Source of the DNA: Psammoneis japonica
Taxonomy: Eukaryota
Length of the DNA: 64,000 bases
Direction: 5' to 3'
Assembly: GCA_008632985.1 (NCBI GenBank)
Contig: QPGO01000008.1
Span: 166,979 to 230,978, forward strand
Shown: positions 15,188 through 58,764 of the stretch, in pieces
Numbering within the stretch: position 1 is the first letter of the stretch
Layout: every line of letters starts with the position of its first letter
The notes under the pieces: generated by a model
Told to the model about the DNA's origin: nothing
The model's input: only the letters and a program-made list of their open reading frames with translations
Database searches by the model: none
Made by a program: the position numbers and the translations under genes

Positions 15188-15242
15188 AATCTGGTGCACC
15201 CCTGTCACAATCCACTCTGTCCTGGTCAGATGTCTGACAACA

Positions 15243-24805: not shown

Positions 24806-27235
24806 ATGCATCGAATTTGTGTTGTGATTGTAATCGCCGGTTGCATGGCTGTCGTTCGTGCTCAAGACATGTGTGGCATCTGCCAGGGAGTGTATTGTGA
24901 TCCAAACAAATCATCAGCAAATAAGCTCTTGTGTGATTTAAGATGCGGCTCTCTTGCCAATTGTGAAGGCTGGAATGAACTCCGCGCTCGAGAGTCGCAA
25001 CAGACTTCGAGACCCACGCCACGACCAACACGATCACCGACTCGTAGACCAACCCGATCACCGACTCATAGACCGACCAAAAATCCAACAAAAAAACCGA
25101 CTCCTCAACCCACGACATCTCCAAGCCTCGCCCCTACTACAAAGCCAACGACGCAACCTTCTCGTGCGCCGACAACATCGCCAACACCAAGTGTGCCTCC
25201 TACAACGACACCAACAGCACGACCATCTCGTGTGCACACAGCATCGCCTACAGCAAGGCAAACGGCATCTCCTACAAAGAAACCGACATCACAGCCATCT
25301 CTTGGGCCAACGATCTCACCAACGACCGCAACGTCAGTTCCAACAAAGCAACTTACCGAGATGCCGTCACCATCACCAACCCCGGCTCCAACGCCTTCAC
25401 CAACTAGATCTCCATCGATAGAACCAACAAAACAGCCCACCTCCCGTCCAACAGCACCTCTGACTGATATGCCCACACAAATGCCAACTCCAACCCCAAC
25501 GTCAGCAACAGCTGATACAACGTCTCCATCAAACATTCCTATGCCGGAAATCAAAGCATTGCCAACCCATTGCAAGAACTGCAAGGAGAACTCGTGCTTC
25601 TCGATGCCATTACCTGGTATGGAGGTCAATTGCAGGAGATGGAACTGTGAAACTCTTGAGGGATGCTATTTCGGTGGTGATCTCAGCAATGCTCCTCCCC
25701 CGGTAGATCTTGAAACTGGAACTCCATGCACCTCAGATGAACAATGTCTCTCGGGCGTATGTCGCAACGGTGCGTGTATGGCGTCCTCGGATTGCTATCC
25801 CGTCAAGCACGACTACGGGACACCGTTCAACAAGAATACGATCAATCTCGTTTTTGTGGGCTCGGCATTTGATAGAGCTAGTCATGAGGAGTGGAGATTA
25901 CAAGTTAACCAAACGTATGACTACATGAAGAATTACAGCATGTTCGCGCAAGAGAACGAACAGTTGAATGTATTCATGGTCGATCAAGAGAGTCTCGATC
26001 CGTCGTTTTGTGTCAATTCTTGTGCCGGGATTGAAAGGTTGCTGTGTAAGTACCTAATTTGACATTTACTTTGTCGATCATGCTTTGCATACTTACAGAA
26101 ATCGTTCTATACAGGCTGTGATCTATTTAGAGCCAAAGCTATCTCAGAGAAGTGTTTCCCAGCCGCAAGCAGTGCTTTACAAACAATCGTGATTCACAGG
26201 GATGGCATGTAAGGCGCAAAATTATCTCGTTTATACTGACTCAAACTTTGTCATGAAGGATTATCACGGTCCCTATAATGCCGTTTTCGCCAATTCGCTG
26301 ACACACTTCCCATGTACTTGTCGGCCAGGTACGGAGGAGCCGGATACCCCTACGAGAACTTGGCTACAATGTCAGTCCATCCAAAAGGCGCGCAAATTGC
26401 AGTTCATGAGTTGGGTCACTCGTTATTTGAATTGGCTGATGAGTACTCATACGGGCCTGGAACAGACCGAGATCCTAATTGTGCGGCAACCAGTGACTGT
26501 TCGAAATGGTCTGACCTTATTGGACGAAAACTCGATGAATACAATGAAGTGACCTGTATGCCAGGTTGTCGGAACAACAACTACTTTGTAGGAAACGTGT
26601 CATTCATGTCGTCACTGAGCAGCCCTGTCGGTGCAGTGAATACTCGTTACACGTGCTGTACGTACTTGGCCTTAACGAAATCATTCCCTTCATACTGTCA
26701 AGTTTTTGACTTTGAGCCAGGATACTTGGTAAATTTCTGCCAGGGCAACGACTACCAGAATTACGGAAAATCTAACTACAACGAGCAACCGAAGCTCTCA
26801 ATTAGTACGGGGGCGGCGTTTAAAGACAAATCCAAGTACATGTACGTGTCAGAGCCTCTTTTGGTGGAAGTGCGTCTGAATCACAAGAAGGGTCGCGCCC
26901 AAGTGGCAGGCACACCTGTGTCGGGAGCACCTGGTTTGTACCGAAAGAAACGGGTGATAGGAGACTACAAGAGACTTTCTCAGGCCAAGGCAGCTGGGCT
27001 TGAAAAAGTTGTACGTGTAAAAGTGACGTATCGCCAGGGTACTCAGCGATTCTTTCTGTCAACGAATACCACCATTGAAGTTCCATCACACGCATTTGTG
27101 AGCGACGATATCAAGAGAGAACGAGTAGCCGTGTCTGAAAATGCTGAATTCGTTAGCCTCGTTCTCGACGTAAAGGGACGATCGTTCAAGAGAATTCAAG
27201 CCAAGTTTGTGAGCGCGGGTACCCCGATACAGTGA
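24806..27235 (+). CDS. Secreted M64 (IgA-peptidase-like) zinc metallopeptidase with Cys-rich modules and a Pro/Thr/Ser stalk; exons 24806-26045, 26115-26208, 26329-27235
   Basis: Signal-like MHRICVVIVIAGCMAVVRA and a long xPT tract. Two GT-AG introns join the frames (RLLC/CDLF; DGM/YGGAG). Zinc motif AVHELGHSLFELADEY. Confidence 0.8.
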
Positions 27236-40170: not shown

Positions 40171-40648
40171 GTTATATAAGACGGTCGGGATGATGATTGG
40201 GTTCTCATGCAATGTACGAATCGACAATCAACAACAACCGAGCAACATCAACAACACTGCCTGTGCGAGATGCACTGTGGAAATGACAAAAATGAGGAAA
40301 AAAGGGCACGTTCCTCTTTTGCCTCGCTGTCCGTTGAATCGCTAAATGGAGAACACCTTTAACTATATACACAATGGTATATATTAGGGTGATTCATATT
40401 CGTTACGAAATTTTTTTAATGTAGAGCGTGCGCGCGTCACGTCAGTTCATGTCACACTGGTGCGCGCGCGCGACTAACGGTACAATGCAAAACAATAGGT
40501 CATGAGCAGGAAGATCGTCCGAGCTCCCACGACCTCCCACCGACAAAGAGCGACCGCACAAGAGATCGATCCAGAAAAAAAGACAAAGGCTAGAGCCACA
40601 TTCACGGTAAAGTAACTTTTACATCACATTATCGTCAGCTTGAACACA

Positions 40649-41911
40649 ATGGTAAGCAAATGTATGAGAGATGGAGGGTAATAATAGAGCCAATGTTTAG
40701 GGTGTCATGGCCATTTTCGAAAACTCCAATTTACTTTTTCATTCTTTAATTTACTTATTCAATTTTGACCATTTTCCTTATTCACAGAGACCAATTTTAT
40801 TAAAAGGCCATGAGCGGTCCATCACCGTGGTCAAGTTCAATTACGATGGCGACCTGCTCTTTACTGCCTCCAAGGACCACGTGCCTTCTGTCTGGAGAGC
40901 TGAAAATGGGGAACGATTGGGTACTTTTAACGGTCATAAAGGAACCATTTGGGATTTAGACTGCGATCGATTCACTACGAGGCTCCTGACGGCATCGGCG
41001 GATGCGTAAGTGATGTTTGTAATGCTGTCTAGTTACGCTTGGAGTTTCTCTTTTCATCGTAAGTTTTGTAAATCTAAGTTACGACACGCTCTTTTTCGTC
41101 CACGGACAACTACTTTAGGACTGCCAAACTGTGGGATTGTGAAACTGGAGAATGCATTCAAACATTGACCCATCGAGGACCAGTACGAGGGGTTGCTTGG
41201 GCGGAGGGTGCTGAAATGTTTGCCACCATTTCGGATCCATTTGTGGAACACAATGCTCAAATCTCGGTTTACGATGTGGGACAGGATTCACCGAGATTGG
41301 AAATTGATTTACCGAAGGACTCAAACAACAAGAAGGTCAACCCGACCAACATTGCATGGCTCAATATCAACGAGGCGCTCTTTGTGACGTTTGATAATGG
41401 ATCCATTCGCTTGTATGATCCAATCACTGGAGAAGAACTAGAAGAATTCTTTCCACACGAAAAGAAAATCAATCGCGTATCCTTCAACCGTGAAAAGACA
41501 TTGTTCATTACCAGTTCGGCGGACTTTACTGCCAAACTCTACGACGTGGTGGACCTGAAGCATCTCAAGACCTACAAGACGGACCGTCCCGTCAATGATG
41601 CCGTCATTTCCGAAACAAAGGATCATATCCTACTGGGCGGTGGTCAAGAAGCCATGTCGGTCACCACGACTTCGGGTAAGGTGGGAAAGTTCGAGACGAG
41701 GTTCTTCCACTTGGTGTACGAAGAAGAGTTTGGAACCGTCAAGGGACACTTTGGACCCATCAATGCTCTCGCGATAAACCCAAATGGGCTCAGCTTTGCG
41801 AGTGGCGCTGAAGACGGATACGTTCGCCTTCACTTCTTTGACAAGTCATATCTAGACATGAAAGACCCTGTCCCCGAGGAAGATGAAGAAGAGAATCCAG
41901 CAGCAGAGTAA
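40649..41911 (+). CDS. EIF3I: Translation initiation factor 3 subunit I (WD40); exons 40649-40651, 40788-41005, 41119-41911
   Basis: [76 protein letters not shown]. Confidence 0.95.
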
Positions 41912-41973
41912 AGTAAACGTTTACCAGTATGCATTAACAAGTTCTCTATAGTTGGTCCGGCATTAGATCAGCT

Positions 41974-42590
41974 TTATTTAACTGAGACTAGAGTGTTCCT
42001 CACAGACAGACTGATTCTGTTGATAATCGCTTCTCCGGCATCCAGATGAAATTCTATCCAGCTTGCTCTCCGTATTCCGTTCACATCCACAGTCTCAAAT
42101 GGTTCTGCTCCTTCGCCTGTCATCAGTGGCAACACGGGAGGGATCTCAACAGTTTCAGTCAGTTTGCGGAGCAGTCTAACTTGCCTGGCAGAGCCATGGC
42201 AGCCAATTGTTGCTTCCAATGCAACCTCTTGCGAATCAAGAGCGGCTTCGTTTAGGGTCTCATAGTCGCCCAGAATATTCTCTCGCCGATAGAAACCAGA
42301 TGCACCACGCGAAGGCGTTCCCACACTTGGGCCATCCACGACAATGCAATGATGGGAATCGTTGCATTCAACAGTTAGAACAACTGGATTCTCCACAATT
42401 TGGTGTTGTAAGGGCATCTACAGGCATCCCTCCAAGCTGTGCATAGTTTTCAATACCGCAACCCTGATAATCTTTATCTCGGCAATATGATAAGAGATAG
42501 TTGGGTTCAACATCAAAGACATGACAGTACGGAGGAAACTGAGTACGGTGTGGTCGACAGCATTGAGATCACAAGCAAGCATGAGAGAGC
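41974..42590 (-). pseudogene. Dead copy of the last exon (and part of the intron) of the M64-like gene at 61552-64000
   Basis: Collinear with 61552-62170. It lacks the 20 bp agcacagccgcgagtctgga (frameshift) and is separated from its upstream exon by the Gypsy insertion. Confidence 0.85.
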
Positions 42591-42607
42591 GCGAGCGAGA
42601 TGTCAGT

Positions 42608-45600
42608 TGTACGGTAGTTGCATACGCCGCCCTAGATAGGATCTACAGTTCATAATTGAACATGTCGATTCAGATCTATTCTCTACACAAGTTCCAGTAT
42701 ATCGATGAGCACTCTAAACATAAAGCTCACTTTTTTCGTCCATCGAATGACGTTACGCTAGATCAGTGCACAGAGAATTCACTTCACGCGTTTTTTCACG
42801 ATGACTTCCAACGATGCTGCGACACCCTCCTTCGAACTCACCGGACAATGGGAAACCCCGAAATGCTTCAAGGGGGGCACTGCGAAGTTTGAAGTTCGAG
42901 ATGTCCCCAACAACATCCACAGTGGAACACACGAGAAGAAAGTGACTTCTTTCAGTGGTGAGCATGGCAATGATGACCCCCGTTTCTTGTGTGATTTCTA
43001 AAGACAGGTGAAGGAGATCTTTGACCGCAAGCCCTTCGAAGCAGGCCCGTCCAAGTTTGGCATCTTCTCCACTTGCCTCATCGGTGCAGCAAAAACTGAT
43101 TGGGAGCAAGCGCAACAGGAATTTGAAGATCCAGTGCCAGAGACTGAGGACACGTTCCAAGCCATCCTTGAGACGTTCAAGACATGCGCCACTTCGAGAG
43201 CGACACGCCTCGATGTGACCAGATCGAACATCTGAGGACCATCAACAAACTGGTCTGGAGCAACTTGTGAGCAGTTCGTCTTGGCAATGGATGGCATGAC
43301 AACTGACCTCCGGCAGTTTCTGCTGGACGTCGACAATGACAGTGAAGCGCTGGACACTCAGCCCACCTTGTCAGACGACGATTGCGTCAACATGCTCATC
43401 AAGAGCGCACCACAACCTTGGCATGACAAACTCACAGCAAATGGCATGAACCCCCAAGACCTTGCCAAAAAGGACTTGAAAGAGCAATTCCAGTGCATGG
43501 AGAAAGTGGAGAAATGCAAGGAGAGATGTCACAAGTGCTCCAACGATGTCGTCACGGAAGCAACAACCAAGACTGAAAGAAGAACAATCGCAAAATGTCT
43601 TGCAAGGGAATGTCCGGGAAAAATCCCCCAAAAGCCCAAGCACTGCAACTTTTGCAAAAAATCTGGACACAACAACCAAGAGTGCTTCACCCGGGACATC
43701 CACATCACAAGAAAGTGTCCTTCAAACACGATGACCAAGACAAAAATGACCGCCACAATGGAGATCACAGCAATCATCACCGCAAGTGCCGCTGTCATGT
43801 CTCCAACAAGGAATCAGAGCAACCACGCTGCTTTTTGGGTGACGAATCCTTGGACTGCAATGACGGACGAGCAGCAATGATGGGCGAGCATGCAAGATCT
43901 GCCGCTCTGAAAAACAGAACAGAAAATGTGAATCTGGCAGCGAACAATCTGATGGCTGCCAGCTCAGCTGCTTGCAAGACAAAATGGATCATGCAAAAGC
44001 GGAGCACAGGAATGCCGCTCACATCCAATCAGGCTGATCGACACCAAAGTTGCAAAGAAAAAATGCAAGACAGCAGCACTGGCTGCAACAGCGCCGCCAG
44101 AGGATGATGCAGTCACTGGATCAAGTGCTCCATCATTGTCAGATTCTGGAAGCTCTGCACCCAGGAGATTTTGGCAAAAAGTCAAATCTGCCAGTTTCAA
44201 CACCAAAACTGGCAAGTTCACATGCCGACACAGAGTGGCATGTGACATTGCCTTGCCAGAGCCGTCAACATCCAAGACCTTTAGATGGTCTTTTTGTGTT
44301 GATGAAACCAAGGACAAGACTTGCAGCTTGATTCTTGGAAGCAACTGTCTCAAGGAACTTGAGATTTGCCTGTCACATTCATCCAAAACTGTTCAGCGGG
44401 GCAACTCATGGGCTCCAGTGCAAAGCCATGATGAAATCAAGCCTGGCTCAGAAGCTGAAGAAGCATTCTGGCAAATGCAATCAGACAAACATGACAAGAT
44501 GGTCAACGAGTGCTCTGCACTCAATGAGAAACAAAAGAAAAAAACACTCAAAGCATTGAAGAGCCATGAAATGCTCTTTGATGGCACATTGGGAACTTCA
44601 ACTACAAACCAGCCAACCTGCATGTCAAACTGGGCAAAGACGTGCCGTTTCACGCAAAACGAGCATTCAACACACCACAGATTCACAAGGACACCCTGCT
44701 CAAAGAAATCCAAAGATTGGCATCAATGGGAGTCCTCAAGCTAAATGACAGCAGCAGGCATGCATGCCCTGCTTTCATTGTGCCTGACAAAAATAAAACA
44801 GCCTGCTTTGTTTCTGATTTGAGAAAGTTGAACGTGAGATTAAGGCGCGAACCATGTCCGCCACCGACCATGCAAGAGTTGCCACAAAACCCACAAGGGT
44901 TTGAGCACACTGCTTCTTCAGACCCAAATGTGGGTCACTGCACCATTGGGCTCATGCCTCAAGCACAAGAGATGTGCGCTGTTGTTGCCCCGTGGGGGAA
45001 GTTCAGCTGTCAATGCCTGCCAATGGGAGCAGCGCTGGCATCAGATGTTTTTCAACTAAAAATGATGCAACTTGTGCAAGGACCAGAGGATTTTGTTCAC
45101 ACTTGCCACAACGACCTCCTTCCAATGGGCCAGCCTGCCTTTGATGAGCACCTTGAGCAACTCGGGGCAGTCTTGGGCTGGCTGCAACACATCGGGCTCA
45201 ATGTCAACGCCGCAAAATCAAAATTCTTTGCTGCTGAAATTGAACACCTTGGTTTCTGGCTCACTGGGGAAGGAACAGAACCTGTGGGTGAAAAAGCAAA
45301 AGCAACGGATGAGATGGAGTGACCAGAAACACAAAAACAACTCCGCCATTTCATCGGCATGGTCAATTTTTACCATGACATGTGGCAATCACGGTCACAC
45401 TTGCTTGCACCACTCTCAGAATTGACATCCAGCAAGAAAAAGAAAAAGCTGAATTGGCTCCCAATGCATGAGAGAGCCTTTCAAGCAGTGAAAGAGGCAC
45501 TGAGGCAAGACGTGATGCTCGTGCACACTTCTCCAAAAATTTTGCTGTCCACGTTGAGGCGAGTGATTTTCAACTCAGCGCCATCATGTCCCAAGAGGGC

Positions 45601-47809
45601 AAGCCAATTGCTTTTTACAGCAGATGGCTCAACAAAGCCCAAAGAAAATGTGCTGCTGCAGAAAGAAAACTTCTCTCTGTTGTGGAGTGCCTGCGAGAGT
45701 GCAGAAACATCTTGCCAGGCTACGAAATTGAAATTTTTACAGAACATGTCCATCTCACTTACAAAACGGCATCATCAGTGCGCGCGCATTGCTGGTGCCT
45801 GTTCACAGAAGAGCTCGGACCCACCTTGACGTTCATCAAGGGAGAGGAAAACATTGCAGCCGATGCACTGAGCCAGCTTGACAAAAAGATTCTGACTGAG
45901 ACAGCCGAAGGCCTTGATGGCAGCGCGCACCCACAACAATCAAATTCAAAGCAACTGGAGCAAATCACGTGATCCGAGCAGCTCTGTGTCCAAACCCGAG
46001 CTTGAGAGAAAAGAAAGCCAATTGAAAATAGCCAAAGCCCTTGCAGAAGAGGCTCTGCCACGATCCCAGCCAGCCCGCAAGCGCAGGCACCTGGAGAAAA
46101 GAGAGGAGACAGCTCCCACTCATGGCTCACCCACCAGCTGCAAGACAATCGTGAAATGCCAATGGAAAGATGCAAAAACATGTGAGAAGCTAGAAACAGA
46201 CAGAAACTGCATGGTTGGAAAGACAGGCAAAAACAATGCAGTCTTTTATGATGGCAATCAGATGCCCGTGCCACGACCACTCCAAAAACCAATCGTGGAT
46301 TGGCGCCATGTCAATCTCTGTCATCCTGGAACAGATCAAACAGAAGAAACAATGTGACAAAATTTTACATGGAAGAACTTCCGCAAAGACATTAGAGACC
46401 ATGTGACACATTGTGATGAGTGTCAATGGCTCAAAAAGCATGCCAAAAAATGTGGCCATCTTCCTGCCAAAGCAGCAGAACATCATCCGTGGCGCAAATT
46501 GTGTGTGGACCTCATCGGTCCCTACAATGTGCAGACCGCTGATGGCAAAATTCACGAGCTCAAAGCCCTTGCCATGGCAGATCCAGCCACATCATGGTTT
46601 GAGATCAAGGAAACACCCGATGCTGTGAGCAAGACAGCAGCGCCAACAGTCAACCAAGAATGGCTCTGTTGCTGCCCTCATCCTTGCAAGATCCCTTGTG
46701 ATCAGGGTGGTGAGTTCACTGGCCAAAAATTCCAAGATCTGTTAGAATCTCATGGAGTCAAAGGCAAGCCAGCTTCCAGCTGAAATCCACAGGCAAATGG
46801 CCTCATTGAGCGCACTCACCTCACTCCACACAACATGCTGTGCACATTTGACCTGCAACTGCAGACACTGAATCCAATTGATCCTTGGTCTGGCTGTTTG
46901 GCCAATGTGGCTGATGGCAAAATTCACGAGCTCAAAGCCCTTGCCATGGCAGATCCAGCCACATCGTGGTTTGAGATCAAGGAAACACCCGACGCTACAA
47001 GCAAAATGGCAGCACCAACAGTCAACCAAGAATGGTTCTGTCACTGCCCTCATCCTTGCAAGATCACTTGTGATCAGGGTGGTGAGTTCACTGGCCAAAA
47101 ATTCCAAGATCTGTTAGAATCTCATGGAGTCAAAGGCAAGCCAGCTTCCAGCTGAAATCCACAGGCAAATGGCCTCATTGAGCGCATTCACCTCACTCCA
47201 CACAACATGCTGTGCACATTTGACCTGCAACTGCAGACACTGAATCCAATTGATCCTTGGTCTGGCTGTTTGGCCAATGTGGCCTGTGAAATTAGAAGCA
47301 CCTGTGCCACACTGCACTCCAAGCCACCCCAGCAGAACTGGTTTTTGGACATGACATGATTTTTGACAGAAGATTTGGTGCCAATTGGGACCAGATCCTG
47401 TGGCAAAAGCAACATCTGATCAACCAAAATGACAAGCATGAAAACCTGAAACAAACCACCCATCAACATCAAGTGGGCGACCATGTTCCATGCAAATGAC
47501 ATGCCCGACGCAAGCATGATGTCATTGAAGTCTGTTCCAATGGCACAGTGCAGATCCAAACCAGTCAAAGGATCAAAGAGAGAGTCAATGTTTGTCTCTC
47601 ACACCTTTGCAAACACCATCCTTGACCTTGCCAAACCCTTGGGGAAGCGAGTGCAGTGCACCGCCCTGGGATCCACAGCTCACAATTGAACATGTCTTCT
47701 GACGTTGCTCATCTGATGATGTGGACGATGACTCAGATCCATTCTTGACACAAGTTCCGGAAGATCAACAAGTGCTCTAAACACAAAGCTCGCTTTTTTT
47801 GTCCATTCA
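42608..47809 (+). mobile_element. Degenerate full-length Ty3/Gypsy LTR retrotransposon inserted in an intron of the dead M64-like copy
   Basis: Gag knuckle CNFCKKSGHNNQEC; protease DSGSS; RT (PWGKFSCQCLPMG, HTCHNDLL); RNase H (KPIAFYSR, ENIAADALS); integrase (LCHPG, CVDLIGP, DQGGEF, PQANGLIER). Polypurine tract ggggaagcgag at 47641. Related LTRs at about 42608-42746 and 47652-47809; candidate TSD tcagt (42603-42607, 47807-47811). Confidence 0.9.
46538..47281 (+). repeat. 372-bp tandem duplication inside the Gypsy integrase
   Basis: ADGKIHELKALAMADPATSWFEIKE...GVKGKPASS occurs twice, starting at 46538 and 46910. Confidence 0.95.
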
Positions 47810-48175
47810 GTGAAATCGCCACAGCTTCCAACCTTTGGTGCAGCTCACTTGCAGGCCCTGTCAGAACTTTGCATGTGCAGCATGTGAATCTTTTGTTGAC
47901 AGCTCCAGCTGTGATTTGCCAGGGTGTGCACAAATGATTGTTCAATGACAAATCCCTCATCAATCCGACAACCAACCATGCATCTGGCTTGGTTGCATCC
48001 TGGCGGGGTGGCTTCAATCAAGTCAGCCCACTTTGAGCACCACGGGTGCTTGTCACAGTTGGGATGGTTTGAAGTCCGACCACCATGACAAGTGACCCAG
48101 CTCATGAACTGCAACCAAAGCACTGTCAGGATGGAGGGCAGTGGAAGCAACGTTGTCTTGGGCACAACCGGTGCC
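47810..48175 (-). pseudogene. Hypermutated fragment of the M64-like catalytic exon (continuation of the dead copy)
   Basis: Aligns to 62176-62568. A deletion removes most of the LFALADEYF segment after HELGH, and TpA/CpG sites are converted. Confidence 0.9.
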
Positions 48176-48440
48176 AAAAAAAAAGAAAAAAGGAAAAGAA
48201 GGGATTGGCCTTGAAACCACAAGCCGGCACCCTCAGGAAGATTGATGGACAGATCACGCAGATCCCGAGCAGGGAAACATGCTGTGTGAAAAGGGCAGTC
48301 ACATGAGTTGGCACAGCAAACATCTGCACAAAGAGCAGCATCAGAAAAACACACAACCAAGACCAGATTGCATGCACACAGAAACAGAAAAGGGCAAAAA
48401 AAGGAAAACACACCACATGAGGCATGTCAAATGAAACATT

Positions 48441-49150
48441 TTAGAATTTTGAAATTTTCAAAATTCTTGCAGAGGTGGGGCATGGCCACTGAGCAGTCAA
48501 GAGCTCTGAGCTGGTGGTCTGCTGACAAAGCAGAGTTTCCAAGGCATGCCATGAAGGCAGTCGAACATCAGTGCAGCAGTGCTGAATGGCTTCCGTGCTA
48601 AAGTTCATTTGGCGGAGCATCTGGCAGGCCCCAACACGAAAGGAATGGGAAGACCATCTGTTGACAGCCTTCTTGTCCTTGACCAGATCAAGTTTGTGCA
48701 CCTTGGCGGCCACTTCATGGACATCTTTCTCAATCACCTTGGAGGTGACGAGCTCAATCTCCTTGCCTGCAGGTTTGCACAAGGACAGAGGAGTTGGTGA
48801 TCTTGTGACCAAGTCAGTTGCAGCCAAACACTGAAAATCTGATTGAAGTGGCAAACAGCAGTCACTTGCATTGAGGGATCACCTTGACATGCTTGGTTGG
48901 TCTTTCAGCTGCATTTGGAACAGATGATTCTTGTCCAAGGGTGACAACAGCTGGGCTGTTCCTCATTGGTTCAAATGCAATGGAAACAGGAGACCTGTTC
49001 TCTTTCACTGCATGCAGTGCCAAAGGCAGTCCCACACAATTGACAACAATGTCATGCACATTTGGTTTTTTTTTGGTGTGATGCATCAACACCCTCATGC
49101 CATTCTTGTCCAGAATCAATTGCCGTTTGCACAGGCAACACACCATTTTC
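48441..49150 (-). pseudogene. Tyrosine recombinase relic (DIRS/Ngaro- or Crypton-like element; extent unknown)
   Basis: WSSHSFRVGAC (HSxRxG), followed after a frameshift by CSTAFMACLGN, resembling WxSxAFxxYLR with the catalytic Tyr codon read as TGC. Confidence 0.7.
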
Positions 49151-52100
49151 ATTTGACAACAACACCAATGACGAATTGCACCTCAAAAAAAATTTGATGG
49201 CATGTTCACAACAGCCACAAGTGAATGCATCCAGTTGTCATCATCTTTGCAAACAATGCTGTTCACATTCCAGCAATTGCAAACACAAGCAGCATCAACA
49301 CAGTGTTTGGACAGAGGCAGCACTGAACTCGCAATGTGGGTGAGTGCATTGCCTGCTGCATCGCAACTTTTTTTGGAAGAGAAGCACAACCCAAACAGAA
49401 ACAAATGCAATGGCAAAAGTGGTGGGTTCTCCATTCCCGCCAATGCGTGCAATGGTTGAAAGGCAGTGCCGTCTGGCAGCAATGGCAAGGAAGAGTTTCT
49501 TGCAAATGCAAACTCCGTTGTCCCATGACAGAAAGAAACCAACAGCAAAAACAAGGTCACTTGAAAGAAAGGATCATTGAAATCCTTGTGATGATGGCTT
49601 CCTCCACAAAAGTTGGTGGATCTCCCCATCCAATCACGGTTGTCATGATCTCCAAAGCCAAACTCAAATGGATGATCAAGAGTTGTTTCTCCTGACTGCA
49701 CAAGATTGCATGCCAAGTCAATTTCTTCCAAAGAGCAATTCTGACAAAATGTGCTCAATGCGTTTGCATGCAAAAAAGCGCGAGTGCCGCTGACCAAGCT
49801 GAGTTTGGAGACAACTGCTTGCCTCATGTCAGAACCATTCTCAGAGATGAGTCCCTCTTTGATCATCCCATTGAGTGAAATGGGTGCCAAACAATGACAT
49901 CCATGGAACAGCGCAAAGTCGTGATCTTGTGCAAAAGAAGAGTTGGCGAGCAATGTTGGCAAAATTGCACCCATGCTTCACCTTGCAAAGGAGCACCAGT
50001 TTCTCCTCTCCGGAGAACACAATCTTGGTTGACGGCATCACGGGAATGCAAGCAATCCTGTGAAGACAGCTGGCTCGATTCTTTGCTGCTTTGTGATGGA
50101 GAATCCTCTGTTCATTGCTGGAACTGTCTGAATCAAACTTGACCACAAAGTGTGTTTCTAGAATGTGTGCATGCCTTGCTCCGCAGACCTGCACCTCCTT
50201 GACGATGATCTCACCTTCCTCTTCTGCAAACTTGCGCTTTTGTCATTTCTCTGAAAATGGCAAGCACGACAATGACAAGAGCGAGACATTGATTTCTTCT
50301 AAATGACAAAGCATTGAGCACTTGCCAGCAAGCCTCTTTCCTGCATGATCCCCAGCTGCTCCAACTTGTGCCGATGGCCACAGGTCACATGTCATGTGTT
50401 GGTTTGTGCACTCACGGACAGACTCTGGAACAACAACAGATGGGTTCCAGCCCCAGGTGGGACTCCGTGTGACATTGGGCCCGCAGAATTCTGCGTGCGA
50501 GCTCCACAGTAAATTGGCACTGCAATGAAAACACAAATGATCGCCAACAGAAAAAGAGGCAATTTTACGAATGCATCTCCTCCTTGGTGCTTGGAGCACA
50601 TCATTGAGAGTTTGCCCGGACATGTTTTGCAGACATTGAAGAACACACCCAGCATGTTTTTGTTCTCACAAATGTTGAAAATAGAAAGCCTTTGGCTTCG
50701 CAAAACAGGGAGCATGTGAAACAATTTCGTAGAATGCAAAATGCAGAAATGTGAGTGCGTGACATGCGACGTGATCCAAAAAACCATTGATGTCACAGTG
50801 CAGCAGTGCAAGGTCCCACCCAGAGCTGGAGCACGTCAACACCACAGTCTTCAAGAAGAGGAAGCAGATTACAAAGTTCAGAAAAGAGAATCTCTGTGGC
50901 GTCATCTTCCGTGTCTCACGCCTGCCACATCCGGTCAAGAACAAAGCAGCGATGGCAGTGCAGACTGGCTCTTCAAAGAGAAGACATCGGCAGTGGCGCC
51001 AAACAAAATGCAATGCTGACAGAAGACACTGCCAATTCGCAGCTGCATCGGCGCCATTGCATTGACTGTTCACGGTGAAGCCACGGTGCTTTTCCCATCC
51101 AACAACTTTGTGCTTGGAACACAACAGGTGCGCGTGCTTCAAAATGAAAAGTGCAGCCACCTGAAGAGGATGAAGCTCTTTTCCATGCTCTGCCTCCAAT
51201 GCATCAAGCTTGCTCACGTCCATGGCGCATTCACCCATGCCGGGGTTCTTCCGATCTTTTGGTGGGACCGCTTCTTGTCCATCTGGCAGTTTCTTTCTGC
51301 AGAACTTGTGAATCGAATGCTTCACCAGTTTTCATTGTGACACAGACGTTGGCTGTTTGCTGTTGATGATGAGGGTGAGTGCCGTGTTGATGACAAGCTG
51401 CTGTTGAATGTTTTTGAGATGAGCGAGAATGCACGCATGCATTTGTTGTGCATGGAAAACATGCCACATTCTACTTTGGGTGCGCCATTTTTTTTCATGC
51501 AGAACATGCACCAACAAACACTGCAAAAAAGGAATCCAAAGGCAACGGAGTGTCCCTGTCGTCCCAATGCAACACCACTCTCCATCGCGAGTCTGTGTGT
51601 CAACCATTCTTTGCACATGCGCTCGCACGCACCCGAAGGTCTCCTCGTGGACTCTCAGAGAATTCAGACAGATGGTGGCAAAAAATGTGCTCCGGTGCTC
51701 TCACAGATTTGGCTCAAAATGGGCTCTTCACAACTCGTCATGTGTGTTTCAAACCACCACATGAGATTTTTACACAAAACACACCAGAAAAAGCACCGTT
51801 CCCACGACAATCGATGTCATTGGCACATTGACAGCCATGCCTTCTACCGCTTGCCCATCATTGCAAGATGCATTCATGAAGCTCATCATGGCATTGGAGT
51901 GGCGACAATCGGTGACTGTTTCGTTGCTTTCTGCCCAGTGCTTGGTGTGTGCGAGAGTGTGTGTTTTTCGGTCGTCATGCTGGCATGGTGTCTCCTTTCA
52001 TTCTCTTCTTCCACTCATTTCAATTCGTGCATTTGTGTGTTGAAAGATGTGAATCTTAAGGTGCGCTGAAACCAGTGTCGGTTTTCATGTCAATGTGTGA

Positions 52101-54123
52101 GTGTCGTTCTGCTCAAACCAGGATTTGTTGTGTCTTTGATTTCTTCATGATTTGATGGCTCACTGATGGTGCTCTTTCTCTTTGTGGTGAATGTTTTAGA
52201 CTGTCAATGTGTGTTGAAGACATTGTTGAGCTGCAGCATTGACAGTCGAGATTTGTCATTGACTGAGCTGCTGCATTCGTAGTGACACGCATGAGTCCCG
52301 TCTTTTTGCTGCATTTCATGACGATTGCCTTGATTTCTCGTGATTTGGGATGGACAACGCCTCTCCATTGAATCCAATTCTGTCATTGAGCGTCACAGGT
52401 GAGACTGTGCAAGAACAGAGATGACATTTGCATCTGATTGACTCACCATCTGCCATTTTTCTCAAAGCAGGTTGCTCTGGGGCGTGAAACAGATTGATGA
52501 GACGGAGATTTGTGACACGTTCTAATGGATTGGAGGACACAGGAGACAAGAAATGCCACAGAGATGAATGGCAACTTCTGTCACACTGAATGCCTCAGCA
52601 GAAACTTGCAACAAATTTCTGTCAATGCGAGGCAATCTGTCAGTGACAAAAGACTGAAGAATGTTTGCAGCTTGTGAGTTGCATTCTATGAAATCTGTTG
52701 TTCACAAGACAACATGGGTCATAAAAGATCTTGTGCAAAGACTCGAACATGGGAGCCAATGTCCCTCCTGAGGGTTTCTGGGTCATTGTCGGCAGTTGCC
52801 GTCAAAGCTGCTGCGGTGCCCAAAGTGGTGCTGTCATTTCCCGTCTCCTGATTGAGATCACAGTGATGTTTTTGCACACAATGTCAGTGTCGTCATGTGA
52901 TGACAAACAATGCGTCGAAAAATCGGCATTGAACACACTGATTTCTGCAAGCATCATCATCCAACACAGCGGCACTCGCCATTTTCTTTTGTCGCGGTGA
53001 AGTGCGGAAGACTCCATTCCAAAACAAAGTTGACACATGTTGTGTCCAATTGTGAGTTAGCCGGGGCAGGGCTGGTTGGTCGCACACGTTTGGGTTCGAT
53101 GTGATGCACAACTGGCCACACCCTGCAGGAAAAGCTGTTGGTGGCAGGCGAGCAGAAGCAACAAAGCAAACAAAAAACATGGCATGGGTCAAAACGTTGC
53201 AAAATGACGCGACAACAAACAGTGAGAAGAAACCCAACTTAACCCATGAGTGCAGTGCACAAATGTTGTCCAACCACTTCAGTGGCATCTTGCATTCCCA
53301 GCTTGTAGATCAGTGAACACCGCTCACGTTTGCTCGCCATGGTGTTGCTTCATGTTGGTCATTGTCATGTTGTTTGTGTGCGAAGAACACCGGATCTATT
53401 TGTCCGATGGTGGCTCTGTTTTGGTCATGGTGGATGTTTTGCTGTTTTCAATCTGAAGACATTTTGAGAAGCGCTTTGTGACAACCCTGTTTGGACCGTC
53501 AAATAGAATTTTTTTTTGCAGATTCCAGAGTTCTTTCGGGGTGTTCTGCAAGACTTTTGAGTTGGGGCACATGTGTCACAAAGTCCACAGAAAACTTGAT
53601 GATGTGTTCAAGCTCAAGAGATGAACACAAATTTATCTTCCATGTGGACCACGCAGATTGTGTGCCGGCGGAAAATCCACCGCATGTCAACTCACACAGT
53701 GGCAATCCTGCGCATGTTCCACTTGCACCTCACACACGCACACACACCTGCACAGTCCAACAACCGCGCACACGTGCGCGAGATGACTGTGCCTGGTGCA
53801 AAGTTAATTTTTCTACAGTGCGCTGCTGTGTCGCACGCCGGCCATCCGCAAGAGCACCGGAACACATCGCCTGCATGCGACCCTGGTGCATCGTCTGTCT
53901 GAATTCTCTGAGAGTCTGTGAAGCACAGGCTCAGAGCAAACCTGGGCAGGACACTCAATTCACAACACACACAAACATTGAGAACATTTTACATTTACAA
54001 AATGGGAGACATTTCATGGACACAGCTTCCGGGTTTCCACATTTTGTGTGCCGGGTTCCTTTCGATGTTTTTGATGTTTTATCACGGTGAAAGTGCGACG
54101 ACCATGATGGTCGATTTTCACAT

Positions 54124-54225
54124 CAATGCAAGTGGGGCCAAAGTGCGCCGACCATTTGAACCTCATCATGTCGATGATGTGTGGCACAGGCATGGTGTCA
54201 GTGCACTTTGGCCCCACTTGCATTG
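54124..54225. repeat. ~100-bp inverted repeat with 29-bp arms, possibly a MITE
   Basis: caatgcaagtggggccaaagtgcgccgac ... gtcagtgcactttggccccacttgcattg. The two mismatches are at CpG positions; no TSD was found. Confidence 0.75.
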
Positions 54226-54744
54226 CAATGAAAAAACCAACGGCATGCTGTCATGGCTGTTTTTTTTTTCAGCGGCCGCACCCAGAAAAAAGCTCTGGCC
54301 GTGCAGAATTCTGCGGTGATTTTGTGCTGAGCTCTCAGCCAACTTCTGTCAAAGACACAATTTCACTCGCGTTGCATGGCACTCTGTCAATCTGTCAAAA
54401 GCAAAGATCATGACAAGGAAACAGCAAAATCCCAAGAAATCAGAGGCTTGCAAGGCCACAATGAGGCTCATGCCAACAATGCCTGCTTCCCTCACCCACA
54501 CTTGGCTCACTGCTTCGGAGCATTGCAATCTTCTCACTCAAGGCGGCATCAACAACAGAGTCACCTGTGAGGACATGAGCTCCATCATGAGGTCACACAA
54601 CAATGGAGCATTTGAAAGTCGACAGTTTGGAAGCCATCACGACAAGCATTGTTGTTCCCACTCTGCACAAGATGACCCAACAATGCCAGAGACTCGGGGT
54701 GCCATTGATCTTCACCTCGACTCTGATGCATTCTCGGGAGATGA

Positions 54745-57167
54745 ATGCGTGGAGGATCTCAATGCTGTCAGTGCTCTTTGTGTGAGTCGATTCCTGAGTC
54801 AGATGACCAAGAGAATTCAGGAAATGGCAATGTTGTTGCTCCCACTGTCACTCCGTTGCCCAGAAATTCAAAAACATCTGCGGCTGGCTTGTGCAGAGGA
54901 TGGAGTGGTCCCAATTGCAAGAGACTCGTGTCCATGTCTCTGAAAGAGGCTCAAGACGAAGTTCCTTGGCTTCTTGGTGAAGGAAAGTGCAATCAACCTT
55001 TTCCACTTTCCAAGAGGTTCAACAAGCGCAAAGACTGTGAAAAGTTTGTTGTGGACAACAGTGCTGCACCGGCTGAATGGACGATTCGAGCCACTTCATG
55101 CACTGGCTCATCTCATCTCCACGGTGGCCTCTGCGATGCATGCAAGAGTTCATCCTCATCACTGACTCACACAAATTCCTTTTGCAAGGAAGATGCAAAG
55201 GTTCATGGAAAGATGCACATGACTGAGGAACGCATCCATCTGCTTAGACCAGCAAAAACAGCGGAGGCAGTTAAGTCAATCTGTCACGAAAAGAACAATG
55301 CCATGCACAATCTCAGCAGAAAAACAGCTAGACTGAAGGCGAAACTTTTTGAAGTCGAGTCTGACTTGCACACAGTTGAACATGATGATGACAAACAAGC
55401 ACTACGAGATGTGCTAAAAGAGGTGCCACCGGCTGCAAAGAAAGCACACTGTGAAGATTCCCTGCAATTTCATGTTCTAAAGGAGTCTCATCGCAAACTG
55501 CTTGGTGTGCGCACAAAGAGTGATGGCACATTGTCAAATGGGAATCAACATCATCCAGAGGCAATGACACCCGCAATGTCTCTCATTCGAGACGCAAACG
55601 AAAATGTGCACAAGTCGCTGCAGAATGTTCTGCACTTGCCGTCAACCAAGGAAGCAAAGAGAAAACTAAAGGAGCTGGTTGGAGACACCAGCAAAGATGG
55701 ATCGTGTGAGGAAATGATTGATCTGATGTCAGGAATGCATCAACAATGGGCTGTGGAAAATCCCACCATCAGCCAAGGTTGGAACCAGGTGACGTTTAAC
55801 TGCAATTCAATGTCCGTCAGTCCTGGCACCATGCTTTGCACTCGAAAGGATGGCATGTGCCAAACAGATGGCGTCATCATGCCAGAATCTGTGGATGTCA
55901 CCAAGAATCTTTTTGATCAGTTTGCATTCAAGGTTTCTGAGGAGCGGGGAGTTGGTCCATCAGAACAAGGCAAAATGCAATTGGTGTCGTCTCTTCTAGA
56001 GCGCGAAACAGAACACACGGCAATGTGTGTGGTTTCTCAAACCCACGTTGTGACATGTGTTTCATTGGGGCTGCCTTCAATGGAACTGCGCCAACAAAGT
56101 CAACCATTGGTTGTCAGCCAGATGACTTGCAGAGGAAGCTGGCGACACGAAATGTGTTTGGATGAGTTGAAGCAGCCGACTGTGCAGGTGCAAACGTTGG
56201 ATTCACCAAACTGACCTGCACCACACCAGCAAGCAGTTTCATTCCAGCTGATGTCCTTGAAAAGCATGGTTTAGATGGGTCGTGGCTTGTTGCTGGTAAA
56301 TTGTTTGCTGATGGTGAACCCAAGTTCTGCTTCCACGATGCGCCGCATGGTTTGAAACGCGTGAATTGTGCAATGAGAAACCAATCCCTGTCATGGCATC
56401 CCGACGGCACATGCCCAATGTCAATGAATGCCCTTCGGGAAGTGCACCAATCCATCATGGGGAGCACAGACGAAATGGCCTTGATGCACTCCATGAAATT
56501 GAGAGCCTCCGATTTCGATTCCAGAATGGATGCTTCTCAAAAGCAGAAGGTTCAACCAGCAGCCCGCACTTTGAGCAACACCATGTGCCGGGCGACAGAC
56601 AAAGTGTGTGCTGACGCGATGATCGACTTTCCGTCAATCCCATTTGAACAGAGGAAATTCCAGCTTTCCAAGCTGAGAGAGCTTTGCTCTAATTGCAGTC
56701 GTTGGTTTGACACCTGGAACTCTAGAGATCCATCCAAGCCAAGTCATTGGAAAGTGCTGGTGACTCGAAGAAACGCAGTGGAAATTTTGGACGAATTGCT
56801 TGGCATTCTAAAATTCTTCCAAGATTGGAAAGAGTCCCTGACACTCCCGGATGGCACTTTTGTGCAGGACAACTTTATCCCGATGGAAACTTGTGAGACC
56901 ATGAAGCAAGACTGCCATGGTGCTGCTTCCCACACATGCGATCAAGCTGTCAACAAAGGCCGAGAGGTGTGTCTTTACCGTTGCAACCAGGACAAGTGTG
57001 AGAACCACTTTTCCCATTGCCGCGTTGCCTGCGGGAACGCTCGAAATCCCAAGGGGGCTCATGCAAAGACTTGCGCCAACTTGTCGGGTCTGAAGAGGGC
57101 CATCCGGGCCAGCAAAAATGGGAACATCACATTGTTTGAAGCAGCAAAGAAAAGGAAAGGAAACTGA
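54745..57167 (+). pseudogene. P-element/THAP9-like transposase relic, frameshifted near 56.0-56.3 kb
   Basis: NVHKSLQNVLHLPS; FHDAPHGLKRV (DxxH); KQKVQPAARTLS; RWFDTWNSR; NQDKCENHFSHCR. These are P-superfamily blocks in the expected order. Confidence 0.8.
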
Positions 57168-57628
57168 ACAGCCAATTTGGTCACTGCGTCTTTGCACTTT
57201 CGTGCGCAACAAGTGCTCCAGTTCTAGTTGGCAATTTGTCGGTTCCTGTGCATGGCCGAGACTGCCGTTCAAGACGAAGCAAGTCAGACGATTTCATTTT
57301 TCCACACAGCTCCAGTGTCATTCCAAAGCAAGCTTGCCAAAGGAGCAAATGTGACTCCACATTGAAGCTCAGCGGGATGCACTTGACAAACAATTCCCTC
57401 AATGGCAGACTCTTTTTGGCAGTGGACAGCACATCTTCTAGAATTCTTCCACGCCGATGCAACACCTGTGCAGCAGCAAAGTTCACCAGGTGGAGCCCCT
57501 CAAGCAAGCTGACAAAATTGTGCCAAATTCTGCCCCGGACGGGTCATGCACCCATGTGCCTTTTTGTTCTCACGAAAGTCAATCTCTTCAGTTGGCATGC
57601 CGGATTTCTGAGCATCATCTGCGGTGAG

Positions 57629-58764
57629 TCAGTTGTGCTGGACAAATTCAACAAGCAACTCCTTGTTCAATCTGCGCATTTTGCTGCAAGATGTGACCTT
57701 GAGGAGAAGCCACCCTGCAACACTGCATGATTTTCCTTCATGTCCACTCAGTCGTTCCTGGAGAACAGCAGTGTCAACATCTGAGCCCAAGTCTGGTGTC
57801 GCATCGTGCATTGCCGTCTTTGACCATTCGGCACACATGTCACAATGAAGTTGGGCAAAGAAGCATCTGAGGTGCGCTGCTTGGTTGTCTGACTCAGAGT
57901 TGAAAAATGAGACAATTTTCTGAAGGAAGCGTTCCCGCAAGACGACGTGGATTTCATGCCATTGATTGTTGGCACGCCTGTCAATTGTTTGAGGCATCGC
58001 CCCCGTCAGAGTGTGGCAAACTGCATTTTCAAAGCTTGGTGTCTCCTGAGCAGCAAGCAACTTGAGCTCTTCTCTGCTTGCAAAGTCTGTGATTTCCGAA
58101 TGATCAACGTTTGTTTTGGACACTTCCTCCTGAGCATTCTTTGCCGCCCGCCCCCCACTGCAGATGGCATGTCATGTTCATCTAGGTGCAAGACCTGACG
58201 AATCTCATCAACATCATCAACCTTGAATGTTGGTAGAGGGACAACACCCCGTGCTTTTTTAAATGCAAGCCATCTTTGTGACTGGTGCCGACGGTTGGAA
58301 AGGACATTGAGCCGTGTGAGCAACTCATCAAAGGAGGTGTCGCGTCCTTTCCGTGGCAGCGGCTTCTTTGTGTTCCACCTTGTGGTGCTGAATCCATGGT
58401 CATAGACGCGCTTTTGGAAGAATTCATCTGGCTCTCTGCGAATCGTTGCGCAGTTGAGAGTCAAAGCACTGCCATCATCCTGATCCATTGCGTTGATTCC
58501 TGGCGGCGGCGGCGGCAGTTGTTGCTGTTGCTCACACATTTCTTCATGCTCTGCGCCCAAGTTTTCCATCTCGTCCCTGGAGAAACCATTCTCATTTTGC
58601 ACGTCATCAACAGAGAGGACTTCTTCGTCACACAGGGCACCAGCCTCATCAAAATGGTGCTCAGTGGGGTCACTCATCGTCAACTGCACACACGCACTTG
58701 CAACAGCGAAGCGATGTGGTGTTGGCTGCAGAAAATCTGCTTTTCGAAAAGTCGCAATTTCCAT
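57629..58764 (-). pseudogene. Convergent accessory ORF relic of unknown function inside the 7.8-kb element
   Basis: Two overlapping protein-like frames (acidic N-terminus, then KLLAAQETPSFENAV...) joined by a frameshift near 58.1 kb. Confidence 0.45.

Follow-up and report, generated by a model that had tools for sequence, protein, structure and literature searches.

Evidence for TpA-directed mutation in a duplicated host segment that straddles the edge of a transposon-filled domain in the diatom Psammoneis japonica

A 64,000-nucleotide stretch of genomic DNA of the diatom Psammoneis japonica (GenBank assembly GCA_008632985.1, contig QPGO01000008.1, positions 166,979 to 230,978 of the forward strand), which we call the window and number from its first nucleotide, carries a duplicated segment of 2.4 kb that consists of the eIF3i gene (forward strand) and the 3' part of an M64-like metallopeptidase gene (reverse strand). 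When we compared the two copies of this segment, we found that one of them (copy A) has lost dinucleotides of thymine followed by adenine (TpA) and that this loss depends strongly on position, as a first-pass annotation of the same DNA had claimed. In the eIF3i part, 1 of 52 TpA present in the other copy (copy B) reads CpA or TpG in copy A; in the adjoining last exon of the peptidase gene 15 of 40 do so, and beyond a Ty3/Gypsy retrotransposon that interrupts copy A all 14 aligned TpA are changed. According to the explanation we favor, to which we assign a probability of roughly 85%, the duplicated segment lies across the border of a silent domain filled with repeats, and a TpA-targeted exchange of T:A for C:G erodes the dead copy A. 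These data come from one window and one duplicate pair, and the counts within the single zones are small.

Structure of the duplicated segment

Positions 40579-42576 pair in blastn with 60161-62163 (94.8% identity over 2022 columns). On the far side of the Gypsy element the pairing resumes, with 47809-48087 matching 62175-62454 (88.0%) and 48088-48175 matching 62481-62568 (86.4%). Since copy A pairs with copy B on both sides of the element, the first-pass annotation was right to describe a single duplication that spans three zones. Copy A (40579-42576 plus 47809-48175) is interrupted by the 5.2-kb element and copy B (60161-62163 plus 62175-62568) is unbroken. For comparison, the eIF3i part is called zone 1, the last exon of the peptidase gene together with its 3' flank and the proximal intron zone 2, and the DNA beyond the Gypsy element zone 3. 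The relevant features are the following:

40579..41911, forward strand: copy A zone 1, eIF3i gene, intact (ATG at 40649, stop codon at 41909-41911)
41912..42576, reverse strand: copy A zone 2, dead last exon of the M64-like gene with 3' flank and proximal intron, TpA partly erased
42577..42759, forward strand: insertion junction and left long terminal repeat (LTR) of the Gypsy element (LTR at about 42620-42750), keeps 15 TpA
42760..47668, forward strand: interior of the Gypsy element with reverse transcriptase (RT), RNase H and integrase in this order, near-zero TpA
47669..47808, forward strand: right LTR, one TpA remaining
47809..48168, reverse strand: copy A zone 3, distal intron and fragment of the upstream M64-like exon, zero TpA
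42760..58800, no strand: TpA-free, CpG-poor and CpA/TpG-rich domain of about 16 kb, 0-6 TpA per 500 bp against about 30-37 expected
60161..61491, forward strand: copy B zone 1, eIF3i copy (gene at 60230-61491), frame broken in the assembly
61492..62561, reverse strand: copy B zones 2 and 3, open 3' part of the M64-like gene (Pfam Peptidase_M64, 2.8e-11)
26279..27232, forward strand: paralogue C, a second M64-like peptidase (Pfam Peptidase_M64, 2e-07), used as outgroup within the window

The eIF3i gene of copy A involves two introns (40652-40787 and 41006-41118), and its spliced form was found with 0 differing letters in sequencing run X2 (joints 40650>40787 and 41005>41119, GT..AG). Although it is labelled 'DNA?', this run behaves as a transcriptome would, given the presence of spliced copy A eIF3i. 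Contigs of X2 fall on 40800-42747 and on the DNA from 58807 onward; depth was 0 in 21 of the 23 bins between 43156 and 58427 and 0.23 in 50460-51123, and this missing cover was not taken as evidence. The best named matches to the eIF3i of the window come from Eucampia, Ditylum, Odontella, Coscinodiscus and Fragilaria (about 78-85% identity).

Relative to copy B, the peptidase part of copy A carries a 20-bp deletion and a 5-bp insertion in zone 2 and a 26-bp deletion in zone 3, which removes part of the HELGH region. These three indels disrupt what remains of the M64-like gene, and because homology stops at 48168 the 5' part of this gene was never present in copy A. In copy B, the M64-like gene is made up of a last exon (61552-62130), a 93-nt intron (62131-62223, GT..AG) and an upstream exon starting at 62224, and distant homologues continue directly over the exon junction. 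In the eIF3i gene of copy B, three bases have been inserted (60378-60380) and one base near 61340 is missing; in the assembly, this 1-bp deletion disrupts the frame. Decay has taken opposite courses in the two duplicates, with an intact, spliced eIF3i and a dead peptidase in copy A and an open peptidase and a frame-broken eIF3i in copy B. Paralogue C, which sits in normal DNA and is without an intron at the place where copy B has its intron, shares 123 of 310 aligned residues (40%) with copy B. Several genes with helicase-associated (HA) domain repeats were found at 33766-36138 and 59432-60130, one of them directly upstream of copy B.

The interior of the mobile element yielded Pfam matches to RVT_1, RT_RNaseH, Integrase_H2C2 and rve as well as a match to Ty3 (3.8e-11). 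Thus, RT, RNase H and integrase follow each other between two LTRs in the order that defines a Ty3/Gypsy LTR retrotransposon. The interior also contains a 372-bp internal tandem duplication, and the LTR pair (42639-42743 and 47669-47806) is 80-89% identical according to blastn and alignment. The element sits within the M64-like intron of copy A and the corresponding empty site of copy B is 62163-62175; when this site was compared with the two junctions of copy A, no clean target-site duplication of 4-6 bp could be aligned.

Stepwise loss of TpA along copy A

The copies differ by 18 substitutions over 1327 aligned bases in zone 1, which agrees with the earlier description of the eIF3i copies as almost identical, by 46 over 652 in zone 2 and by 37 over 356 in zone 3. 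Zone 1 keeps its TpA: copy A retains 50 of the 52 TpA of copy B (21 of 21 in the non-coding parts), and in the reverse direction 2 of 56 are changed. In zone 2, the 15 altered TpA of copy B read CpA (9) or TpG (6) in copy A and 25 are retained, compared with 2 of 30 in the reverse direction. The first-pass annotation had given about 13 versus 2 for the dead last exon, which is within counting error. Zone 3 of copy B involves 16 TpA; two of them fall into the deletion of copy A and the other 14 read CpA (7) or TpG (7), with 0 changes the other way. The description of this piece as fully converted is therefore exact for TpA, none of which is left in copy A. Background divergence in zone 3 is only 11/356.

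In binomial tests the asymmetry was significant for zone 2 (15 versus 2, p=0.002), for zone 3 (14 versus 0, p=0.0001) and overall (29 versus 2, p=5e-7). The steps between neighboring zones were significant as well (1/52 versus 15/40, p=7e-6; 15/40 versus 14/14, p=3e-5). Other transitions from A/T to G/C were counted 12 times in copy A and 4 times the other way, and these numbers indicate at most a weak tail of the process beyond TpA.

TpA-free domains in the window

When TpA was counted per 500 bp, the distribution was bimodal and separated two kinds of DNA of equal base composition. In four TpA-poor blocks (1-7867, 13990-24430, about 31800-33290 and 42760-58800) the count is 0-6 per 500 bp, compared with an expectation of 30-40. 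The borders of domain and genic blocks were set by visual inspection of these counts, and the following observed-to-expected ratios (o/e) are partly circular to this extent. The domain blocks (35,243 bp) carry 134 TpA (o/e 0.06), with an o/e of 0.33 for CpG and 1.76 for CA/TG; the genic blocks (27,380 bp) carry 1143 TpA (o/e 0.61), with corresponding values of 0.91 and 1.18. The only trinucleotides depleted in the domains are those containing TpA or CpG, and for AAT/ATT and AAC/GTT ratios of 1.03-1.05 were calculated.

The domain that holds part of copy A (edges at 42759/42760 and 58403/58801) contains the Gypsy interior, zone 3 and more repeats, and the six other domain edges of the window are sharp to within about 100 bp. 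Zone 3 is erased because it lies inside this 16-kb domain, with the Gypsy element on one side and other repeats on the opposite side. Apart from the Gypsy element, the erased blocks hold a remnant of a Plavaka transposase (15952-16686, 5.5e-12; second block, 13990-24430) and otherwise unrecognizable frames. The genic parts carry Pfam matches to Pex19, O-FucT, HA, spermine synthase, AdoMetDC and eIF3i. TpA loss is local: it is found in bounded regions with mobile DNA, and the remaining window is normal.

Two side observations concern reading frames. In 10 kb of erased DNA we counted 124 frames of at least 50 amino acids over all six frames; long false open frames arise in the erased blocks since TAA and TAG are gone and TGA is the sole stop codon, and tyrosine codons are impossible where TpA is absent. 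In normal, TpA-bearing DNA there is an array of ten tandem 306-bp units (9033-12074, 86-92% alike), which lies inside an open frame of 1409 amino acids (8353-12579, forward strand) with weak Pfam matches to the ENT domain.

Copy A is the changed copy

On sequence comparison, the direction of change was judged from codon effects, residues of homologues, paralogue C and the intron donor, and all four tests identify copy A as the changed copy, in line with the direction given in the first-pass annotation (TpA to CpA/TpG in the dead copy). Sites with TpA in copy B and CpA/TpG in copy A comprise 17 nonsynonymous, 6 synonymous, 4 intron and 2 flank positions, and those with CpG in copy B and TpG/CpA in copy A 7 nonsynonymous and 5 synonymous ones. 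For the classes in which copy B would be the changed copy, 1 nonsynonymous and 10 synonymous sites were counted. A ratio of 17:6 is what neutral decay of copy A would give and 1:10 is what a selected gene in copy B would give; the difference between 24:11 (A changed) and 1:10 (B changed) is significant (Fisher test, p=0.001). Among 11 distant homologues (30-35% identity), both columns with tyrosine in copy B and cysteine in copy A are aromatic (11/11 and 9/11), and both columns with valine (GTA) in copy B and alanine (GCA) in copy A carry valine, isoleucine or leucine (11/11 each) and never alanine. Reading of the alignments with paralogue C at the 17 nonsynonymous sites gave the residue of copy B in 8 cases, that of copy A in 3 and no information in 6. 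Finally, the intron donor is GT in copy B and GC in copy A.

These data also bear on the opposite polarity, according to which copy A is ancestral and copy B was hit by a process resembling repeat-induced point mutation (RIP), with C>T exchanges turning CpA into TpA. The segment is a duplication, as RIP targets are, and if the differences are read with copy B as the changed copy, their contexts are CpA (29), CpT (8), CpG (6) and CpC (4). This order resembles the context preference of RIP in Neurospora. Against this stand the open frame of copy B, the conserved residues and the GT donor on its side, and the 17 nonsynonymous to 6 synonymous exchanges, which a selected gene would not tolerate. 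Moreover, in the eIF3i part neither copy was hit, and the repeats of the window are TpA-free (o/e 0.06), which is the reverse of a RIP footprint. We therefore consider a RIP-like change of copy B extremely improbable.

The first-pass annotation had cautioned that the comparison copy is probably under selection. The changes on the side of copy B (1 nonsynonymous to 10 synonymous) bear out this caveat, and they would suit a reading in which the dead copy decayed neutrally next to a copy under purifying selection, so that selection and chance produced the asymmetry. The asymmetry could have vanished at neutral sites, but it remained when only doubly neutral positions (6 synonymous, 4 intron, 2 flank) were counted (12 versus 2, p=0.013). 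Neutral decay also fails to account for the change of 14/14 aligned TpA in zone 3 at a background of 11/356, and for an exchange from A/T to G/C at a single dinucleotide. Ordinary mutation spectra are usually A/T-biased. The ordinary nuclear spectrum of Bigelowiella natans, as given in the preprint on this alga, is A/T-biased too (bioRxiv 10.64898/2026.01.13.699255). Taken together, these findings make neutral decay plus selection a most unlikely source of the pattern.

Strands, flanking bases and action in place

Both strands were hit, as indicated by 16 CA and 13 TG products overall (9:6 in zone 2, 7:7 in zone 3) and by the enrichment of both dinucleotides in the domains, where no transcription-linked strand bias was seen. 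The few TpA that survive in the domains are unevenly distributed over the flanking contexts (R, purine; Y, pyrimidine). Comparing domain with genic DNA, we counted 1 versus 320 RTAY, 62 versus 613 with one purine flank and 71 versus 210 YTAR. In the polarized sites of zones 2 and 3, purine-flanked half-sites were changed more frequently than the others (23/64 versus 6/48, p=0.008), and where a single half-site is purine-flanked, it was this half-site that changed in 12 of 15 cases (p=0.035; hand tally from alignment rows). From these flank data it follows that the unit of change is RTA>RCA, which is equivalent to TAY>TGY. A spectrum of the Pol-eta type (WA>WG) was set aside: it hits TA, but AAY/RTT trinucleotides are not depleted (1.03-1.05).

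The erasure happened in place. This can be seen from the host-derived zone 3 (14/14), from the LTRs and from internal duplications. The right LTR reads CpA or TpG where the left one has TpA (TCTAC/TCCAC, CATAA/CACAA, TCTAT/TCCAT; left/right). Each of the duplications 46538-46837/46910-47209 and 32537-32640/32982-33085 shows three adjacent CA<>TG double differences, which indicate that one ancestral TpA was converted separately in either copy. In the RT of the Gypsy element, the Ty3 motifs SGYHQI, YLDD and GKYEY read VGHCTI, CHND and GKFSC, suggesting that tyrosine codons became histidine or cysteine codons, with the polarity of these residues resting on one Ty3 alignment. A search of the protein collection ('longer' lengths) with this RT gave 714 candidates, none of them at E<=1e-15. 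The loss is also independent of target repetition, as neither copy B nor the eIF3i parts were hit in spite of their duplication (1/52, 2/56), and zone 3, which has two copies in the window, is erased in copy A (14/14).

Some of these data speak to the idea that transposon RNA was hyper-edited from A to I by an ADAR-like enzyme and that the changes were fixed via reverse transcription. The erased DNA includes a retroelement, and the targeted A follows U/T, as described for ADARs in the B. natans preprint (bioRxiv 10.64898/2026.01.13.699255). Host-derived DNA that was never part of an element is erased all the same (14/14), the remnant of the DNA transposon Plavaka (15952-16686) lies within an erased domain as well, and the two strands are hit equally (16 CA to 13 TG) where A>G on one strand would be expected. 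In addition, the two LTRs of the Gypsy element differ, and reverse transcription makes both LTRs alike. RNA editing of this kind is hardly credible as the origin of the erasure.

Support from sequencing runs and a metagenome

Contigs of sequencing run X1 (657,387 short contigs, 140.7 million letters) repeat the erased stretches with 0-1 differing letters at a word depth of 60-72. The pieces on erased DNA (599-2369 bases) cover 47254-48120, 48092-50460, 43461-44201, 44174-44772 and 51591-53101, and the first of them, which lies over zone 3 of copy A, shows 0 differing letters. Comparison of X1 with other repeat copies gave 349 transitions and 42 transversions. As a side observation, the summed word depth of X1 rises to 1,356 to 61,266 at 49796-51123, 53116-53779 and 58428-59755, compared with about 60-70 elsewhere, and there are many internal joints. 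These three stretches are very high-copy repeats or satellites inside or at the edge of the erased domain.

A scan of metagenome loci with eIF3i (80 fetched, of which 41 of at least 3 kb were scanned) yielded a second case. The first 2071 bp of the 4379-bp contig L049 contain 6 TpA against 126 expected, 432 CA+TG against 257 and 57 CpG against 115; a sharp edge follows at 2072, and beyond it lies an intact eIF3i gene. Its product is 65% identical to the eIF3i of the window (tblastn match), 78% to one protein and 68% to proteins named for Craspedostauros and Fragilaria. In the erased part of this contig no Pfam family could be recognized. Two further loci (L067, L080) showed single low-TpA windows in GC-rich DNA and were not counted as cases.

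Some long-read base callers are known to make systematic errors at modified bases, and a modified base at TpA in repeats might thus have been miscalled as CpA or TpG. It suits such an artefact that X1 stems from the sample from which the window was probably assembled. The short contigs of X1 nevertheless give the same letters over pieces of 599-2369 bases at a depth of 60-72 with 0-1 differences, copy A also differs by transversions and by genuine indels of 20, 26 and 5 bp, and the unrelated L049 contig, which to judge by its record name is a node of a short-read assembly, shows a like pattern. In addition, the changes in B. natans are described as heritable mutations scored by Illumina reads (bioRxiv 10.64898/2026.01.13.699255). 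We regard a miscalling artefact as very improbable.

TpA loss and CpG decay

In zone 2, copy B has 24 CpG, of which 19 are retained in copy A, 2 read CpA, 1 was altered by a transversion and 2 are deleted; of the 25 CpG in copy A, 4 read TpG or CpA in copy B. A CpG loss of 2 (A) versus 4 (B) matches, within counting error, the balance of about 3 versus 4 noted earlier for the last exon. Zone 3 is different in this respect: the 16 CpG of copy B read TpG or CpA in copy A in 10 cases, 4 are retained, 1 was altered by a transversion and 1 is deleted. The resulting 10 changes among 15 aligned sites, compared with 2 the other way (p=0.04), fit the signature of methyl-CpG decay.

When CpG sites lost by transversion or deletion were dropped, the loss of TpA exceeded that of CpG in zone 2 (15/40 versus 2/21, p=0.03) and in zone 3 (14/14 versus 10/14). 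Similarly, between 43001 and 44000 there are 0 TpA (56.6 expected) and 39 CpG (62.5 expected), and the first kilobase of L049 contains 3 TpA (60 expected) and 42 CpG (59 expected). TpA loss leads CpG decay in every comparison made, and these counts support that order. The first-pass annotation had suggested that the TpA process acts earlier than CpG decay or independently of it. The first of these suggestions is backed by zone 2 (15/40 versus 2/21); the second need not follow, as a single shared domain in which TpA is lost at least about twice as fast as CpG fits all counts.

Position of the domain edge and points that weigh against the favored explanation

Several findings weigh against our explanation, and most of them concern the part of the first-pass annotation that had the process spreading from the transposable element. 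Within zone 2 there is no gradient toward the Gypsy element (3/14, 7/10 and 5/16 in successive thirds; Mann-Whitney p=0.68). The left LTR, although flanked by the partly erased exon on one side and by the erased interior on the other, keeps 15 TpA in 150 bp, and four of these are RTAY, the most vulnerable type, which is unlike what simple decay with distance predicts. The one comparison copy for the left LTR is the right LTR, itself erased. As to polarity, at three nonsynonymous sites (I/V, I/V, V/A), all of them in variable columns, paralogue C carries the residue of copy A, and the synonymous and non-coding sites were polarized by argument only, without an outgroup orthologue at the DNA level. 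The circularity of the block ratios has to be added, as has the fact that the domains are presumed to be silent or methylated chromatin. Run X1 is possibly the window's own source sample and its library type is unrecorded, so that it provides support and not independent proof. Finally, a TpA-free block, of about 2 kb, was present in only 1 of the 41 metagenome loci scanned (L049).

With no zone 2 gradient, a left LTR that keeps its TpA and sharp domain edges, spread from the element is not shown, and it is the dependence on position that persists. The present domain edge is at 42760, just beyond the left LTR. The loss of 37% of the TpA in zone 2 presumably reflects either a leak or an episodic extension past this edge, the process in B. 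natans being episodic and overrunning the insert, or an earlier position of the edge before the arrival of the Gypsy element. That zone 2 was hit beside an LTR that keeps its TpA may also mean that the left LTR is younger and was exposed for less time.

A patchwork made by gene conversion would offer another account of the zones. Copy A would then have been fully erased at first; sequence from copy B would later have replaced all of its eIF3i part and patches of its last exon. Divergence outside TpA and CpG is indeed lower in zone 1 (12/1327) than in zones 2 and 3 (34/1008, p=3e-5). In the non-coding bases of zone 1, it amounts to 7/319 (count from alignment), which is near the background of zones 2 and 3. 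Selection on the exons explains the low overall value, and because the non-coding divergence is near background, no special process has to be invoked for the close similarity of the eIF3i parts. The differences in zone 2 are evenly spread without long identical tracts, and conversion in this zone follows the flanking base (12/43 versus 3/37, p=0.04). Kinetics of mutation predicts such a flank effect and overwriting does not, which indicates incomplete mutation rather than patchy overwriting from copy B. We consider gene conversion unlikely, and return to TpA-targeted mutation at a domain edge as the explanation to be developed further.

Possible mechanism

Direction, dinucleotide and flank specificity, action on both strands, restriction to sharp-edged domains and the lead over CpG decay can be read directly from the comparisons given above. 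As to what lies behind them, a process acting at the DNA level inside the domains would turn TpA into CpA or TpG on both strands, fastest at RTA/TAY, and ordinary decay of CpG to TpG/CpA would follow more slowly. Copy B would keep a working peptidase gene and the ancestral letters. The peptidase fragment of copy A, dead on arrival, would record the process, with eIF3i untouched, 37% of the TpA gone from the exon and all of them gone from the inner piece.

The process is probably enzymatic. Adenine deamination on DNA, as proposed for B. natans, would be the leading candidate, which we advance tentatively and at somewhat less than even odds. The target of the bacterial enzyme TadA is the UAC anticodon loop, and the resemblance of the TAY preference to this target may weakly favor a deaminase. 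Oxidation of thymine at TA, for which dinoflagellate 5-hydroxymethyluracil might serve as a parallel (PMC11572971), appears rather improbable as the cause. Overshoot of T:G repair, by analogy with the aberrant repair described for TDG (PMC4041421), would seem still more doubtful. Causes of other kinds would take up the remaining probability. In its widest form, our explanation would imply that diatoms run a DNA-editing defence guided by chromatin domains, which exchanges T:A for C:G, through deamination of adenine or by another route, at the near-palindromic target RTAY on both strands, precedes and outpaces cytosine-methylation decay, has movable sharp edges and belongs to an old system of the whole SAR supergroup with a DNA adenine editor. 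This is a possibility that we hold to be unlikely as a whole. If it were true, TpA-only editing in a diatom and in a chlorarachniophyte would go back to an old system common to the SAR supergroup, with edges that swallow and kill host DNA and duplicate genes.

Significance

The duplicate serves as a natural calibration, since one sequence can be inspected in three settings, beyond an erased domain, at its edge and within it, and host DNA caught in the domain was destroyed. In the window, the TpA-erasing signature is near completion over tens of kilobases of transposon-filled DNA, and the second eIF3i lineage represented by L049 suggests that such a process may be common in major marine algae. 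The RTA/TAY rule narrows the search for the enzyme. Erased DNA also calls for caution in genome annotation, as, without TAA/TAG stop codons and tyrosine codons, spurious open reading frames multiply and similarity searches miss transposon proteins.

Comparison with known systems

Several systems share single features with the process described here. Like RIP of ascomycetes, it consists of dinucleotide-specific transitions that ruin repeats and may reach adjoining DNA. In contrast to RIP, in which C>T exchanges at CpA make TpA, the direction is reversed here, with a TpA o/e of 0.06 in repeats; and RIP acts on both copies of a duplication, whereas here the eIF3i parts (99% alike) and copy B are untouched. 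Decay of the methyl-CpG type appears to proceed alongside (10/15 in zone 3, CpG o/e of 0.33 in domains versus 0.91 in genic DNA), but deamination of methyl-CpG cannot yield T>C/A>G at TpA and it lags behind the loss of TpA. A repair-driven T>C bias is known from the very-short-patch repair of E. coli, which acts in the context CTWGG and is linked to the scarcity of CTAG. For TDG/MBD4, aberrant repair leading from TpG and CpA to CpG has been described (PMC4041421). These repair systems resemble our case in that T>C exchanges arise in a fixed context, as a by-product of the protection of methylated cytosines, but the contexts differ and neither of them erases TpA over whole domains. In dinoflagellates, TET/JBP enzymes form 5-hydroxymethyluracil with a preference for TA/TC, and this base is tied to silencing of transposable elements (PMC11572971). 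It is a modification, whereas the process in our window is mutation.

The closest counterpart was reported in 2026 for a single chlorarachniophyte, B. natans, and this was the first report of a TpA-erasing process in foreign or silent DNA. In mutation-accumulation lines of this alga, the mutation rate of two integrated viral regions exceeds that of the remaining genome about 1000-fold, and of 231 mutations found in these hypermutable regions 230 are A>G/T>C exchanges, all of them on TpA (bioRxiv 10.64898/2026.01.13.699255). The larger viral region is described as silent and single-copy, the process as active in some lines only, and the hypermutable region as extending about 21 kb past the annotated insert (bioRxiv 10.64898/2026.01.13.699255). 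Elsewhere in the genome, clusters of TpA-poor, CpA+TpG-rich windows and transposon-like genes of this kind are mentioned, and the authors propose an ADAT2-like DNA adenine deaminase (bioRxiv 10.64898/2026.01.13.699255). In our literature search we found no TpA erasure beyond this preprint and none in diatoms.

Judged by the main text of the preprint, the two cases share A>G/T>C exchanges on TpA that give CpA/TpG, bounded regions and a trigger other than copy number, and because of this common signature we place the window with TpA hypermutation of the B. natans type. They differ in organism and target, as B. natans is a chlorarachniophyte with viral DNA and P. japonica a diatom in which transposon-filled blocks and a captured host gene fragment are affected. 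They also differ in extent, with a TpA o/e of 0.06 (near complete) in the window and 0.45 in the viral region, and in the origin of the rate, which was deduced here from the duplicate and measured there in mutation-accumulation lines. CpG decay, the RTA/TAY flank preference and the sharpness of edges were quantified here and are absent from the main text of the preprint, which also says nothing of diatoms or trinucleotides and the supplements of which may hold flank data. Beyond B. natans, the window adds a diatom, transposons as targets, near-saturation, the ruin of host DNA caught in a domain, the lead over CpG decay, the RTA/TAY rule and sharp domain edges.

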